Below are positions 1-37,656 of a stretch of DNA of 64,000 nucleotides, piece by piece. The notes below the pieces were generated by a model. That model was not told the origin of the DNA, did not search any database, and saw nothing but the letters and a program-made list of their open reading frames with translations. A program made the translations under genes and the position numbers. Positions within the stretch are counted from its first letter, which is position 1. The number at the start of each line of letters is the position of its first letter. This stretch comes from Myxococcota bacterium (GTDB lineage: Bacteria > Myxococcota_A > SURF-8), in NCBI GenBank assembly GCA_963674735.2, contig CAXXQS010000002.1:320001-384000 (forward strand). The letters are read 5' to 3'.

Positions 1-1824
1 GGCATTCCCGCCACCATCCTTTTATTGATTCTTATTCTCACCAAAGGAGCCAATATCGGCGTCTCCATGCTGTGGGCGGTCGCCGTGATTCTGGCCATAT
101 CGCTGCTGATGTTTTTCATGGGTGAGCCGCTTACCGCCCAACCGGAGTTGAACATTCTGGCGCGAGTGGAAAACGCCGACGGCTTTTTCTACGTCTTCGC
201 CATCGTTTTTCCCGCCTTCACCGGCATGACCGCCGGAGTGGGATTATCGGGTGATCTGAAAAACCCGCGTCGCGCCATTCCTCTCGGCACCGTGGCCGCC
301 ACGCTGTTCGGTATGGTCGTCTACCTGCTGGTCATCGTTAAAATGGGCCGCAGCGCCAGTCCGGCCGACCTCGCAGGCGACCCCTTCATCATGGGCAAAA
401 TCGCCATCTGGGAACCCATCATCTACATCGGCCTGGGCGCCGCCACGCTGTCGTCTTCCATCGGCTCGATCCTGGTGGCGCCGCGCACCTTGCAGGCTTT
501 GGCCGGCGACCGCGCCTTCGGCAACGCCGCCGTCAACGACGCACTGGCACGCGGCAAAGGCGCGTCCAACGAACCGCTCAACGCCACCCTGTTCACCGCC
601 GTCATCGTTTTGGCCGTGGTATCGCTGGGCAACATCGACTTCGTGGCTCAGATCATCAGCCTGTTTTTCATGGTCACCTACGGCGCGCTTTGCTCCATCA
701 GCTTTCTTCAGCACTTTTCCGGCAGCCCCTCCTATCGGCCCACCTTCCGCACCAAGTGGTATTTTTCCCTGGTGGGCGCGGTAGCCTGTCTGGTGATGAT
801 GTACCTCATGCAGCCGTTGTACTCGGTGCTGGCGCTGTTTGTCATGGCCCTGATTTACCTGTGGATGAAACGGACCATGAGCGGCGACCGCGACCTTTCC
901 ACGCTTTTGGCCGGGGTGCTGTCGCAGATCGTGCGCAATCTGCAACTGCTGCTTCAAAAACGCCATACCACCGACGACGCGGCCAACTGGCGTCCCAGCT
1001 TCATCGCCATCTCGGCGCAGTCGTTCAAACGCCTGGGGGCCTTTGACCTTCTGCGCTGGATTTCGCAATACCAAGGGTTCGGAAGCTATATTCACTATAT
1101 TGAAGGACCGCTCACCCGCGAAACCAACGAAGACGCCAAGGCGCTGCTTTCGCGGCTGATCGAACAAAGCCAGGCCAGCCGGGCGGGTATTTACGTCGAC
1201 ACCATCATCTCGCCCAGCTTCAAAACCGCCGTCGCCCAGATCGTGCAGATTCCCGGCATCTCCGGGATGGACAACAACAGCATTTTGTTCGACTACACGG
1301 CGGACGACAGCGAGAAAATCATCACCGACATCGTGCATGGCAGCCAGTTCGCGTCGGTGGCGGGTTTCAACGTCTGCGTGCTGCGTTCGTCCAAGCGTCA
1401 TTTCGGCTACAAGCGCCGCATCCACATCTGGTTCACCCCCGGTGATTACCGCAATGCCAACCTGATGATTCTGCTGGCCTACATCATCGTCGGCCACGAA
1501 GAATGGCACGACACCGAGATCAAAATTTTCGCAGCCTTCACGGAGGAGCGCCTGGAAAGCGGCGTGCAGCACCTCAACGATCTGATCGCCAAGGGGCGTC
1601 TGCCGATTTCGCCCAAGAACATCGAGCGTATCCCCATGCAGGACGACGGCGAATTCGAGTCGCTGGTCAATCGTCATTCGGAGAGCGCCGATCTGGTCGT
1701 CACCGGGTTATCGCTCGATAAAATGCACGAGGACGGCGGGGCTTTTCTCACCCGTTTCAACGCGGTGAACGACCTGTTGTTCGTGTGGGTGGGCCAGCGC
1801 ATTCTCATCGCCGACGAAAGCTAG
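1..1824 (+). CDS. Amino acid permease / SLC12 (cation-chloride cotransporter)-like protein, 5'-truncated by the window
   Basis: Many TM helices, FPAFTGMTAG...SGDLKNP motif, soluble C-terminal domain starting NWRPS. The frame is open from base 1. Confidence 0.85.
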   Translation, partial: GIPATILLLILILTKGANIGVSMLWAVAVILAISLLMFFMGEPLTAQPELNILARVENADGFFYVFAIVFPAFTGMTAGVGLSGDLKNPRRAIPLGTVAATLFGMVVYLLVIVKMGRSASPADLAGDPFIMGKIAIWEPIIYIGLGAATLSSSIGSILVAPRTLQALAGDRAFGNAAVNDALARGKGASNEPLNATLFTAVIVLAVVSLGNIDFVAQIISLFFMVTYGALCSISFLQHFSGSPSYRPTFRTKWYFSLVGAVACLVMMYLMQPLYSVLALFVMALIYLWMKRTMSGDRDLSTLLAGVLSQIVRNLQLLLQKRHTTDDAANWRPSFIAISAQSFKRLGAFDLLRWISQYQGFGSYIHYIEGPLTRETNEDAKALLSRLIEQSQASRAGIYVDTIISPSFKTAVAQIVQIPGISGMDNNSILFDYTADDSEKIITDIVHGSQFASVAGFNVCVLRSSKRHFGYKRRIHIWFTPGDYRNANLMILLAYIIVGHEEWHDTEIKIFAAFTEERLESGVQHLNDLIAKGRLPISPKNIERIPMQDDGEFESLVNRHSESADLVVTGLSLDKMHEDGGAFLTRFNAVNDLLFVWVGQRILIADES

Positions 1825-1902
1825 GAGCGTATCGAATGGACATCCTTCTCCTCTTTGCCCTCCCGGTTGGTTCAGGTCTCAGATAGTAGCGACTGTTATC
1901 GG

Positions 1903-1908
1903 TGTCAA
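1903..1908 (-). promoter_or_regulatory. -35 box (TTGACA) of the IS circle-junction promoter
   Basis: Joining the ends gives TTGACA-ccgataacagtcgCTtg (17 nt)-TATTAT. Confidence 0.85.
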
Positions 1909-2840
1909 GCGAAATTCGGGTTCCAGGCTTCGTTTTTCCGCATCATCGTGTTGAGAATGAGGACCAATTTTCGCATGCAGGCCACCACCGCCGTCATCTT
2001 CGGTTTGCCGCGTCCGACCAGCCGCTGGTAGTGTCCGCGAATCACCGGGTTGTGTTGAATCGCCACCAGCGTCGGCATGTAGAGCGCCGTGCGCAGGCGA
2101 TGACGACCGCCGCCGGTCATGCGTTTACCCCGAAACGTTCCGCTGTCCCGATTCATGGGCGCCACGCCGATCAACGCCGCGATCTGCCGCCGGTTGTAGA
2201 TCCCCAGCTCCGGCAGATCCGTCACCAGAAGATTCGCCGTGCACGCGCCGACGCCCGGCATCGTTTGGAGCCGCGCGGCCCGGTCGCTGCGCTCCCGATC
2301 CGATGCAATGGCCGCCGCGATGGCCCGATCCAGCCGCTCGATTTCCCGTTCGATCACCTCCAGAATGCGGTGCAGGCTTTGTCCGATCGTCCGATCGCCC
2401 ACGTGTTCGGTGCGGTTTTTCTCCATCGTGCGCATGGCGACCAGCTGCCGCCTCCGTGAAGACAGGGCTTTTAACAGGAGGGCGGTTTCGCCGAGCGTTT
2501 CGTTCGGTGCGGGACGCATGGCGGCTGCGTAGCGTGCGATGATGCCCGCATCGAGTCGATCCGTTTTCGCCATCACGCCGACGGCGCGGGCATAATCCCG
2601 GATGCGCCGGGGATTGACCACCGCCACCGGCCAACCCGCTTTCTGAAGACGTTTGCACAGCTCCCGTTCGTAGCCGCCGGTGGCTTCCATCACGACGCCC
2701 TCCACCTCGATCCGCTTCAACGAACGGACGAAGCGTGTCATGCCGGCTTTGGTGTAAGCGTAGCGGACGCACGTGCTTTCGCCGTCGACGGCGACATCGA
2801 AAACGGCTTTGCTGACGTCGATCCCGATCCATTTCTTCAT
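1905..2840 (-). CDS. IS110 family DEDD recombinase (transposase)
   Basis: GIDVSK, VMEATG and KTDRLDA supply the DEDD residues. C-terminal PGVG and RDSG (catalytic Ser-like) motifs. Confidence 0.96.
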   Translation of the reverse strand: MKKWIGIDVSKAVFDVAVDGESTCVRYAYTKAGMTRFVRSLKRIEVEGVVMEATGGYERELCKRLQKAGWPVAVVNPRRIRDYARAVGVMAKTDRLDAGIIARYAAAMRPAPNETLGETALLLKALSSRRRQLVAMRTMEKNRTEHVGDRTIGQSLHRILEVIEREIERLDRAIAAAIASDRERSDRAARLQTMPGVGACTANLLVTDLPELGIYNRRQIAALIGVAPMNRDSGTFRGKRMTGGGRHRLRTALYMPTLVAIQHNPVIRGHYQRLVGRGKPKMTAVVACMRKLVLILNTMMRKNEAWNPNFA

Positions 2841-3049
2841 GGCGCACCCTTCCTTGCCAATACGGGCTCATTTCGATTACAATGGCCCCTGCGACTGTTC
2901 GGGTTTTCCCGGACGAAACGGACGGCGGATCCGGCTACAAAACGGGCTCATCAGGCCCCAGGATGGGACGATCTCGCCGCCCACCACGGCCTCCCGCTTG
3001 CTACGGGAGGTCGTTTCATCTTATCATCACAAACGATGACAGTCGCTTG
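2841..3049 (-). ncRNA. Predicted bridge RNA of the IS110 element
   Basis: Stem-loop at 3012-2988. Target guides CCCATCCT (2967-2960) and GTAG (2938-2935). Donor guides AACAGTCGC (2899-2891) and CAAG (2856-2853). Each guide pair flanks an internal hairpin. The ends are approximate. Confidence 0.85.
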
Positions 3050-3055
3050 AAAGGG

Positions 3056-3061
3056 ATAATA
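3056..3061 (-). promoter_or_regulatory. -10 box (TATTAT) of the IS circle-junction promoter
   Basis: Lies 2 nt inside the left-end core. It pairs with the right-end -35 only after circularisation. Confidence 0.85.
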
Positions 3062-3065
3062 CAAG

Positions 3066-3412
3066 GATGGGCAACTTGTTGCCCATCGCGATGCCTAGAT
3101 GGAAGATCGAACAGAAAGTAGGTCGGACAGATTTTTGAGTGTTGGAGCGCGTCTGCGACGGGCTCCCGGCTTTGTTTTTTTCCTAATACAAGCAGGTCAG
3201 AGACCTGCTCGAACGGAAAGAGACCTGCTCGAACGGAAGGAGACCCCGTCTTCGCTTCTCCCGGAATCGTAACCTCACCCGCCCGCTTCGCGGACCCTCT
3301 CCCACAGGAGAGGGCAAACCCGCCGTTGGAGCGCGTCTCCCGACAGGCTCCAATCTTGAAAGAGGTGCCGTGTTGGCACGCATGAAGACGGGCAACAAGT
3401 TGCCCATCCTAC
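3066..3412. repeat. BIME-like mosaic of REP palindromes
   Basis: Interrupted REP 3066-3087, GTAGGTCGGACAGATTTT 3118-3135, GTTGGAGCGCGTCT..CGAC.GGCTCC at ~3141 and ~3325, 20-bp tandem AGAGACCTGCTCGAACGGAA x2 (3199-3238), CCCTCTCCC...GGAGAGGG hairpin at ~3295-3313, inverted REP 3387-3412. Confidence 0.8.
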
Positions 3413-10014: not shown

Positions 10015-10091
10015 GTAGGATGGGCAACTTGTTGCCCATCTTCCAGGAGTTAAGTCTGATATCGCGATGGGCAACAAGTTGCCCATCCTAC
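10015..10091. repeat. Inverted REP doublet (REPIN) of the GTAGGATGGGCAACTTGTTGCCCATC family
   Basis: Perfect inverted 26-mers at 10015-10040 and 10066-10091, with a degenerate copy at ~9968-9993. Confidence 0.9.
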
Positions 10092-30001: not shown

Positions 30002-30538
30002 TTATTCTCCGGCAACATCTTCATCTGCTGGCATTCTCTCTGCATCATAATATCCCATTCGCAGATATTTATGAAAGGTTGACCATTCCCAATCGGACGG
30101 TTTTTCAACCAAACCATGCTTTACCGGATTAAAATGGACATAATCAAAATGACGAATTAAATCGTTTTCGTCTTTTATTGCATGTTCCCAAAACCTGTGT
30201 TGCCAAAATCCGGCTTCACGTCTTTTCACCTGTTTCACTGTTCGATCCGAGCGCGTATCGAACGTGTCTTTCAATTGGTAAGAAACACTTCGTTTGATTA
30301 AACTCCAGCGAATTGAAAAATCAGCATCATCCGATGGCAACGTCCAGATGCAATGCAAATGATCCGGCAATAAAACCCATGCAATAATATCAAACGGATG
30401 CGCCGAACGTACATCGTTTACAGCTGTCCTCAACGCAAGACGTGCTTCCTGTTTACACAGTAAATCCCGCTGTTTATTGGTTACGACAGTGAAAAAGTAT
30501 GTACCGCTTTCAATATAAAGTCGTCTTAGATCCTTCAT
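30002..30538 (-). CDS. rayT: REP-associated tyrosine transposase (RAYT/TnpA-REP)
   Basis: TYFFTVVT, HUH motif LPDHLH, FWQHRFWEH, DYVHFNPVKHGLV and W.WST. AT-rich and flanked by REPs. Confidence 0.95.
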   Translation of the reverse strand: MKDLRRLYIESGTYFFTVVTNKQRDLLCKQEARLALRTAVNDVRSAHPFDIIAWVLLPDHLHCIWTLPSDDADFSIRWSLIKRSVSYQLKDTFDTRSDRTVKQVKRREAGFWQHRFWEHAIKDENDLIRHFDYVHFNPVKHGLVEKPSDWEWSTFHKYLRMGYYDAERMPADEDVAGE

Positions 30539-36563: not shown

Positions 36564-36764
36564 GTTGGAGCGTCGGGTGCCACGGGCCAAGCGAATGAAA
36601 TGGAGCTTGCCCGTGTTCGAAGATTATGCACATGGGCAAGCTGTGCTTCGCCCATGCCACCCCATTGATACATCGTTCAGCCCTGGTCGGGCAAATTGTG
36701 CCCGACAATTCATGTGTTGGACAGAAAATCCCCAAGTTGAAGCGCGTCTCCCGACGGGCTCCAA
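36564..36764. repeat. REP mosaic
   Basis: GTTGGAGCGTC, GGGTG doublet at 36575-36662, GGTCGGGCAAATTGTGCCCGACA at ~36685, GTTGGACAGAAAATC and GTTGAAGCGCGTCTCCCGACGGGCTCCAAC at ~36737. Confidence 0.75.
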
Positions 36765-37656
36765 CCTCCCCGTTGGTCAGGTCAAGCAGGAGCATGGCTC
36801 TGTCATGCTCCGCGCGGTTGTCTTGCTTTTTCATCATGGTTCCACAACCAGCCCGTCTTCGCCTGTGACGAATCCACCCCTCCTTGGAAAGGAAAAATCA
36901 CCGAAAAGCGATTTTTCGCCACCGGAAAGCATTGAATCAATCATGCTCCATCGACCTGAAAACGGCCCATTTCGGCCCGTTTTCGCCGTTTTCAAATGCA
37001 TTTGTTGAAATCACTGCGTTTTTCGGCGTGAAATCGGGGGGTCGGGTCGATTTCCTACCAACTTTCCGGGTTTGCCCTAATACGTCACACCTGATCGGGG
37101 GTGACATTAGCCGGAAGCCTGCTCGCCGTCGCCTCGGATGCCATCCCGCACAGGCTTGTTTATCTAAAATCATCCATTATTACAGCTAGATAGGCGGTCT
37201 AACCTAAATTCGGCGGAAGCGGAGATCCCTGTGACAGACCGGGCGCAAAGCATCTTATTAGACCTTTAGTATAGTATATTTAATATATTATACTAGAAAT
37301 ATTTAAAGGGAGCACTTTAAATTCGTTGATATCATTGGCTTTTTTCTACTTTCCCCTTTCAGCATCGAAATAGCGGACAAAAACGGCAGGGAAACCGGAC
37401 TTTTCTCGTGTAAATACATGGGGTTGGAGTCGTCAAGGGCGCGTCGTGAGGGAACGAACGACCGCACCCGACTCGAAACGAGCGCGGGAAACGACGTGCA
37501 TCAGAATGAATACATCTGCGCTTCGTGCGAGAAATTCCGGCAAACGGCCGCTTCGACGTTTTGGAAAAACCTTCACGACAATTTCATGGCGTGGGCGCAA
37601 CGATGTGCTAAACTCCGGCGGAATGAGAAACGGATGAGCATGAGCGAGGTGATTCG

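Follow-up and report, generated by a model that had tools for sequence, protein, structure and literature searches.

The 64,000-nt stretch analysed here (the window: positions 320,001 to 384,000 of the forward strand of contig CAXXQS010000002.1, Myxococcota bacterium assembly GCA_963674735.2) carries on its minus strand, at 1888-3065, an IS110-family insertion sequence (IS) that sits in a palindromic repeat of the host. Its ends were set by the divergence of flanks among eight genomic copies and by the ends of relatives; a CT core stands at both junctions, and the element measures 1176 bp with one core counted. Read along the minus strand, CT (3065-3064) comes right after the repeat GATGGGCAACAAGTTGCCCATC (3087-3066); next are TGTATTATCC, non-coding sequence of 225 nt and the ATG at 2840 of a 311-codon frame, which stops at TGA (1907-1905); after the stop come CACCGATAACAGTCG, the second CT (1889-1888), AC and unrelated sequence. 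The element therefore runs from CT at 3065-3064 through CT at 1889-1888, with a left end of 225 nt and a right end of 17 nt (core counted in both), 15 nt of the right end lying beyond the stop codon; relatives have the same layout. Directly 5' of the core at 1889-1888 lies the left donor AACAGTCG (1890-1897, minus strand), and directly 3' of it the right target AC (1886-1887, minus strand). An earlier note on this DNA had described a CT-bounded element spanning 1886-3087 whose excision restores GTAG joined to GATGGGCAACTTGTTGCCCATC. The element is there, and the plus-strand site predicted after its removal does read GTAG followed by GATGGGCAACTTGTTGCCCATC, but the element proper is 1888-3065, the rest of that span being the 22-bp repeat (3066-3087) and the flanking AC (1887-1886).

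The recombinase gene (1905-2840, minus strand) encodes a 311-aa protein that matches Pfam PF01548 (DEDD_Tnp_IS110, 3e-22) and PF02371 (Transposase_20, 8e-19) as well as NCBIfam NF033542, the model named 'IS110 family RNA-guided transposase', with a score of 218 bits (cut-off 140); through this model, NCBI annotation already names such proteins RNA-guided transposases. Its only two PDB matches are ISCro4 (9t56, 3.2e-37) and IS621 (8wt6, 1.3e-34), both over residues 4-300. The catalytic residues, D8, E52, D94 and D97 of the RuvC-like DEDD domain and S233-G234 of the Tnp domain, align with D11, E60, D102, D105 and S241-G242 of IS621 in the PDB alignment, whose chain numbering is offset by two; these are the residues D11, E60, D102, D105, S241 and G242 described as the IS621 active site (PMC11208158). 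Across 33 aligned homologues, neither the DEDD residues nor R231, D232, S233 and G234 vary. When databases were searched with the recombinase, 7955 of the 8000 scored candidates passed an E value of 0.001; identity to the closest protein other than itself is 64%, and among the best 120 the majority have exactly 311 aa. This clade of 311-aa recombinases has members in Myxococcota, Zixibacteria, Desulfobacterales and Planctomycetota. No other IS110-family paralogue was found in the genome. The earlier note had called the protein compact; the length it gave is right, but the difference is modest, IS621 having 326 aa (PMC11208158).

The genome, which consists of three contigs with a total of 5.26 Mb, holds eight copies of the element, 100% identical over 1178 bases each and spread over two contigs. 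In all eight, GATGGGCAACAAGTTGCCCATC-CT stands at one junction and CT-AC at the opposite one, and GTTGCCCATC-CT-AC is the insertion site of every one; insertion is site-specific, at a single site, with CT on both sides, without terminal inverted repeats, and with AC after each copy. The check that had been proposed, that all insertions lie at CCCATC-CT-AC, is borne out by eight of eight copies within one repeat family. The 11-mer GCCCATCCTAC is intact 16 further times, always at the edge of the same palindrome, so that 8 of the 24 exact sites are occupied. Three of the free sites lie in the window, where the earlier note had located them: one at 3402-3412 (plus strand), at the edge of a repeat copy, and two at 10015-10025 (minus strand) and 10081-10091 (plus strand), the left and right members of an inverted repeat pair.

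The palindrome occupied here is GATGGGCAAC-AA-GTTGCCCATC (3066-3087, minus strand), and its 3' arm GCCCATC (3072-3066) is the left target. The repeat occurs four times in the window, against none expected from 100 shuffles, and the genome contains 40 copies with at most three substitutions (21 of them perfect), of which 8 are occupied, 22 carry a CTAC tail and 10 do not. Several pairs are inverted, 39-47 bp apart, with their targets facing outwards. In being short, imperfectly conserved, present in many copies and often arranged as inverted pairs, the repeat resembles the repetitive extragenic palindrome (REP) family. The window copy lies 64 bp past the stop of a 599-aa frame, but the 24 sites of this G+C-rich genome fall within stop-to-stop frames 35-435 codons long, these being open frames and not called genes. 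The repeats might serve the element as safe harbours, as the earlier note proposed.

Five genome regions match the RAYT domain (Y1 transposase, PF01797), three weakly and two strongly; none is flanked by the repeat, and none has a repeat copy within 1.5 kb. One of the weak matches (26 bits, in a 182-codon frame) lies in the window at 30140-30490 on the minus strand (G000:C2:350140-350490). Large segmental duplications bounded by copies of the element were considered and rejected, shared flanks extending over only 61 and 41 bases, which are small repeat modules. A second short repeat family, GGAGCCCGTCnnAGACGCGCTCCAAC, often adjoins the palindromic repeat and the IS copies; its 13-nt core has about 63 matches in the genome, and in the window it is found at 3141-3153, 3325-3337 and 36736-36765.

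The left end, which precedes the recombinase gene, is predicted to give a structured RNA of about 200 nt with two internal loops; its folding energy of -94 kcal/mol beats all 200 shuffles (z = -3.5). For comparison, 80 related loci were fetched by a genome-contig scan that confirmed 265 of 277 candidate stretches; our own eight copies, together with the loci that have a complete recombinase gene and left end, form 51 element groups. The end patterns CTTGTAT (near the left end) and ACAGYYRCT (after the stop) were both found in 60 loci belonging to 34 groups, and the 34 representatives counted below stand for these groups. In the aligned left ends, a variable 5' hairpin lies ahead of two loop blocks. 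The hairpin of the window element is CCTCCCG/CGGGAGG (2990-3010, minus strand, as are all the RNA features that follow). The first block, the predicted target-binding loop (2920-2982), reads GGGCGGCG-A-GATC, GT, the left target guide CCCATCCT (2967-2960), an inner hairpin (2958-2944), GTTTT, the right target guide GTAG (2938-2935), the handshake dinucleotide CC (2934-2933) and GATC-CGCCGTCC; its outer stem is formed by 2982-2975 and 2973-2970, which pair with 2931-2920. The second block, the predicted donor-binding loop (2846-2904), is closed by the outer stem ACCC/GGGT and reads ACCC, G, the left donor guide AACAGTCGC (2899-2891), A, an inner hairpin (2888-2864), GTATTGG, the right donor guide CAAG (2856-2853), GAA and GGGT, with the handshake dinucleotide GA at 2852-2851. 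This loop overlaps the ribosome-binding region GGAAGG.

Placed on the 34-element alignment, the two-loop structure comprises 35 pairs in five helices, and 86.9% of cells are paired, compared with 31.9-50.8% when the partners are shifted by one to three columns. Having been drawn from the window sequence, the structure has an advantage over these shifted controls, and compensatory pairs are the stronger evidence: in 26 of the 35 pairs both partners change, and each of the five measures exceeds what any of 500 shuffles attains. The 5' stem-loop (helix 1) has 68.6% of cells paired and changes on both sides in six of its seven pairs; helices 2 and 3, in the target loop, are paired in 90.4% and 97.1% of cells, and helices 4 and 5, in the donor loop, in 84.6% and 90.7%. 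All the guides and hairpins that the earlier note listed upstream of the gene are present in the order claimed, and folding the region, as it had suggested, yields a two-loop fold whose stems are backed by covariation. No copy of this RNA was found in the genome outside the eight elements.

The guides fit both substrates. The left target guide CCCATCCT matches GCCCATC-CT over 8 nt in the same sense as the top strand, and CT-AC is complementary to the right target guide GTAG; on the donor side, the left guide AACAGTCGC matches AACAGTCG-C over 9 nt, including the C of the core, and the right donor guide CAAG complements CT-TG of the element's own joined ends. Among the 30 of 34 representatives with full-length flanks, we compared guides and flanks at seven positions 5' and three positions 3' of the core. 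Guides and their own flanks agree at 242 of 300 positions, whereas the maximum in 10,000 guide-flank permutations is 184, i.e. no permutation reaches the observed value. Left guides match their own flank at a mean of 5.63 of 7 positions (3.43 against the flanks of others), and right guides at 2.43 of 3 (1.56 against others). Left targets come in 22 distinct forms among the 30 elements and right triplets in 10, and in five of the six with a right target other than CT-AC the guide matches it: L043 (CTGAC), L066 (CTCA), L069 (CTGTCCC), L072 (CTCAG) and L087 (CTGAGCG), the sixth, L052, being the one whose guide does not match. Three further relatives (L017, L059 and L039) share the left guide CCCATCCT and sit at GCCCATC-CT. 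The donor is near-constant in the clade, and donor-guide covariation rests on three elements in which guide and right end change together, L059 (ACAGCCG), L082 and L087 (ACAGTTG). The guide assignments of the earlier note are thus matched here and covary with the flanks of relatives.

The published handshake rule for IS621 requires the two bases behind a right guide to pair with the other substrate, at its positions 6-7, and to leave their own substrate unpaired (PMC11208158). In the window element, GA (2852-2851) pairs with TC of the target, and C2934 pairs with G of the donor; C2933 stands unpaired against a donor C, and neither first base pairs with its own substrate. One related element, in a Phycisphaeraceae genome (L065), lies inside a tandem array of CCCTACA/CCCCACA heptamers and not at a hairpin.

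Joining the two ends assembles a promoter-like sequence. The -35 hexamer TTGACA (1903-1908, minus strand) overlaps the TGA stop codon (1907-1905), and the -10 hexamer TATTAT (3056-3061, minus strand) lies in the left end; the 15 nt from TTGACA (1908-1903) to the end of the core together with TG (3063-3062) form a 17-nt spacer to TATTAT (3061-3056). The sequence therefore reads as the earlier note had it, with circularisation creating TTGACA-N17-TATTAT, and the split arrangement is kept in relatives: TTGAYN-17-TANNNT spans the junction in 28 of the 34 representatives, one has a 19-nt spacer, and five have none by this pattern. In the integrated copy, the repeat supplies a weaker -35, TGGGCA (3085-3080), and TGGGCA-18-TATTAT scores 9/12. 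These sites fit a predicted promoter that would be weak before excision and strong on the circle, a pattern reported for IS621 and ISPpu10 (PMC13626964; PMC12288879).

Together, protein, two-loop RNA, guides, split promoter and target site all agree with the IS621-type reading advanced by the earlier note. We give a probability of roughly 90% to the reading that the element is an autonomous insertion sequence of the IS110 group, mobilised by bridge-RNA-guided recombination in the manner described for IS621. Judged by its sequence, it is a recently active element of the IS110 family with a guide RNA that directs it into one palindromic repeat of its host; its activity (expression, circle formation and dependence on RNA) is suggested by homology and by the identity of the eight copies. 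Excision would join the ends at the CT core into a circle with the predicted junction AACAGTCG-CT-TGTATTAT, which would place TTGACA 17 nt from TATTAT and so provide a strong promoter for the bridge RNA as well as for the recombinase gene. A recombinase tetramer carrying the RNA would then pair the circle junction with a free repeat site and exchange strands at CT, with the handshake dinucleotides GA and C pairing across substrates according to the published rule, and the hairpin of the target might add a structural check, as reported for ISPpu10. Once integrated, the copy would be expressed at a low level until excision, since the repeat gives only the weak -35 TGGGCA.

Several points weigh against this reading. 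The left target guide matches 8 nt only, the ninth position being a T/G mismatch, and the right guides match only 4 nt each; the left donor guide ends in A where the core has T, and among the 34 representatives this position is T in 13, A in 12 and C in 9. Left-side flank matches are poor in L018, L022, L065, L073 and L082, some of which may reflect alignment shifts, wrongly set ends or off-target insertions. Seventeen of the 51 element groups, in which the end patterns did not pick up both ends, were dropped before all counts; they were either cut by contig ends or had divergent ends. No Rfam family matches the strand of the RNA in a search of the region, which returned two sub-threshold matches only, sX15 on the opposite strand and whalefall-1 outside the element. 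Three public runs contain the stretch, all from one study and all kept as contigs, and none is on record as RNA; in the run contigs, the element is a collapsed repeat contig, 1886-3087, with a depth of 79-91 versus 5-12 in the flanks, and neither a circle-junction nor an empty-site joint is present, although contigs drop rare forms. Finally, the target is a hairpin, and part of the specificity could lie in recognition of structure by the protein rather than in the RNA.

Taken to its full extent, this last point becomes an alternative in which target choice is mainly the work of the recombinase, which would read the repeat hairpin as DNA structure or sequence; the RNA would serve above all as a 5' leader in the control of translation, its target matches being secondary. 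Two features lend themselves to such an explanation: in 16 of 33 representatives a perfect hairpin of 6 bp or more has the left target as its 3' arm (compared with 0 of 33 shuffled flanks and 0 of 29 mirrored right flanks), a geometry that IS621 also shows in E. coli repeats, and the ribosome-binding region lies inside the second loop. The target stem-loop is also reported to add specificity for ISPpu10; that account, however, describes the hairpin as a layer added to RNA pairing and not as a replacement for it (10.64898/2026.03.19.712850). The guides change with the flanks over 22 left and 10 right targets, far beyond permutation, and the 17 of 33 relatives that lack a perfect hairpin still match their guides. 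We therefore consider target choice by the protein in place of the RNA improbable.

A further feature of the predicted RNA concerns its 5' end, where CAAGCGACTGT (3039-3049, minus strand) forms a sub-terminal inverted repeat. This segment is the exact 11-nt reverse complement of the junction donor ACAGTCG-CT-TG; it is complementary to the left donor guide and pairs with it in the minimum-energy fold. Pairing of the 5' segment with the donor guide over at least seven contiguous Watson-Crick pairs occurs in 3 of the 34 representatives, and degenerate forms are found at the same place in others. The segment could act as a sub-terminal inverted repeat in the DNA or as a self-masking segment of the RNA. 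Such masking, or missing host factors, would allow for an element that was amplified in a past burst or by gene conversion and is now immobile, to which the missing circle junction and empty site in the run contigs lend weak support (contigs drop rare forms); but the eight copies do not differ at any of 8 x 1178 bases, the reading frame, all catalytic residues, the guides and the promoter halves are intact, sixteen free sites are left, and gene conversion would not put copies at identical sites on two contigs, which makes present immobility very improbable.

Rfam family RF02234 (sX15), filed as a small RNA (sRNA) of Xanthomonadaceae, matches the strand opposite the bridge RNA at window positions 2854-2986 (plus strand), over the full model length and below threshold. 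Such matches, of 23.5-40.4 bits against a gathering score of 55, occur here and in 4 of the 16 related loci searched (L019, L065, L073 and L087). In the converse direction, a covariance model (R1) built from the two-loop core of the 34 representatives picks out, over its full length, a site immediately ahead of the recombinase gene in 14 of the 15 related loci that had no part in building it, and it matches the minus strand of the original sX15 locus on the Xanthomonas plasmid pXCV183 (L093, 1892-2028, 53.6 bits, E 1.9e-13), where Rfam sX15 itself scores 150.9 bits on the plus strand (L093, 1879-2037). Downstream of the R1 match on the minus strand of pXCV183 lies MNGIGIDVCKAKL, which resembles an IS110 N-terminus; tblastn with the window protein gave no significant match there, so the IS110-like gene at the sX15 locus appears truncated. 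Schmidtke et al. (PMC3300014) describe sX15 and asX7 as complementary transcripts, with 10 homologues in Stenotrophomonas maltophilia. Given this complementarity and the R1 match on the opposite strand, sX15 seems to be transcribed antisense to a bridge RNA, much as Asr9/Asr10 are in ISPpu9/ISPpu10; among the titles and abstracts listed by our literature searches, none makes this link.

The window element has a promoter-like site of its own in the antisense direction, TTGCCA-18-TACAAT (2854-2883, plus strand), which lies inside the donor loop and scores 10/12; a comparable site is present in 11 of the 34 representatives. It may drive an antisense RNA like Asr9/Asr10. One can go further and propose that the clade has two brakes on its guide RNA, a 5' copy of the donor acting as a pseudo-substrate and an antisense sRNA made from the donor loop, although we regard this combined proposal as unlikely. 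As the first brake, the initial ~11 nt of the RNA, an exact copy of the bottom strand of the donor, would sit in the left donor guide for as long as the RNA is neither processed nor bound; as the second, the sX15-counterpart antisense sRNA would titrate the bridge RNA or trigger its processing. If this were true, guide availability, and not recombinase level alone, would be the controlled step of transposition, a form of control not previously tied to bridge recombination.

Among characterised systems, the closest in architecture is IS621 of E. coli, the bridge recombinase described by Durrant et al. 2024 (PMC11208160) and Hiraizumi et al. 2024 (PMC11208158). The window element shares with it the two protein domains and the aligned D-E-D-D and Ser residues, the CT core with a long left and a short right end, an RNA in which a 5' hairpin precedes a target loop and a donor loop, guides of 8-9 nt on the left and of 4 nt on the right (core included), the handshake dinucleotides and a promoter rebuilt across the circle junction. 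For 103 IS621 relatives, PMC11208160 describes a 5' stem-loop and, after it, two stem-loops that contain internal loops, of which the first varies and the second is conserved. Both elements insert at the 3' shoulder of a palindromic repeat that has CT-AC at its end; for IS621, the repeat queries from E. coli are printed with the ending ...GGCCTAC (PMC11208160). Unlike IS621, the window element is known from sequence alone; its protein is distant (E 1e-34) and has 311 aa rather than 326, it has its own target (GCCCATC, not the E. coli repeat arm) and its own donor (AACAGTCG), its stop codon falls inside the -35 box with 15 nt of right end beyond, and an 11-nt inverted copy of the donor stands at the predicted 5' end of its RNA. 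ISCro4 (PDB 9t56) is the best structural-database match (E 3.2e-37, residues 4-300), a likeness drawn from the protein sequence.

ISPpu10 and ISPpu9 of Pseudomonas putida are likewise IS110 elements in palindromic repeats, described in convergent repeat pairs (PMC12288879), with the left target in the 3' arm of a stem-loop (PMC12288879; 10.64898/2026.03.19.712850); ISPpu10 also has a junction promoter (PMC12288879). An antisense sRNA is described just upstream of the gene in both (Asr9, Asr10; PMC12288879), where the window element has a predicted site only. The two differ from it in host, repeat and guides, and ISPpu9 is described as having an AG core and no junction promoter. The IS1111 group with its seekRNA belongs to the same recombinase family, uses the same RNA-guided principle and typically has sub-terminal inverted repeats; however, its RNA lies downstream of the gene and its right end is long (PMC11208160; PMC12288879), whereas in the window element the RNA lies upstream and the right end is 17 nt, which places the element in the IS110 group and not in IS1111.

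Because its features match the published IS621 architecture, the element differs from IS621 in degree only and belongs to a kind of system already known. Published work already describes bridge RNAs and how they covary with natural targets in their thousands, as well as the targeting of repeats, junction promoters and handshake guides (PMC11208160; PMC11208158; PMC12288879; PMC13626964), and the clade may already stand among the thousands of predicted bridge RNAs in the tables of PMC11208160. The known mechanism is unchanged by this element, which is of interest chiefly as a neat case from nature and as a way into a large clade. A single genome with 8 occupied and 16 free sites and directly readable guides is a convenient model for target choice, for saturation of a repeat family and for the role of the target hairpin, and the large, little-studied 311-aa clade could supply recombinases orthogonal to IS621 and ISCro4.

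Two minor observations concern the surroundings of the element and of a relative. Between the window element and the next repeat copy lies a tandem duplication with a unit of about 22 nt (CTCCTTCCGTTCGAGCAGGTCT and CTTTCCGTTCGAGCAGGTCT; 3200-3260, minus strand). On a Desulfobacteraceae contig (L026), two matches to the Acido-Lenti-1 RNA, at 781-825 (minus strand) and 939-983 (plus strand), with 38 bits against a gathering score of 37, form an inverted pair upstream of a related IS.

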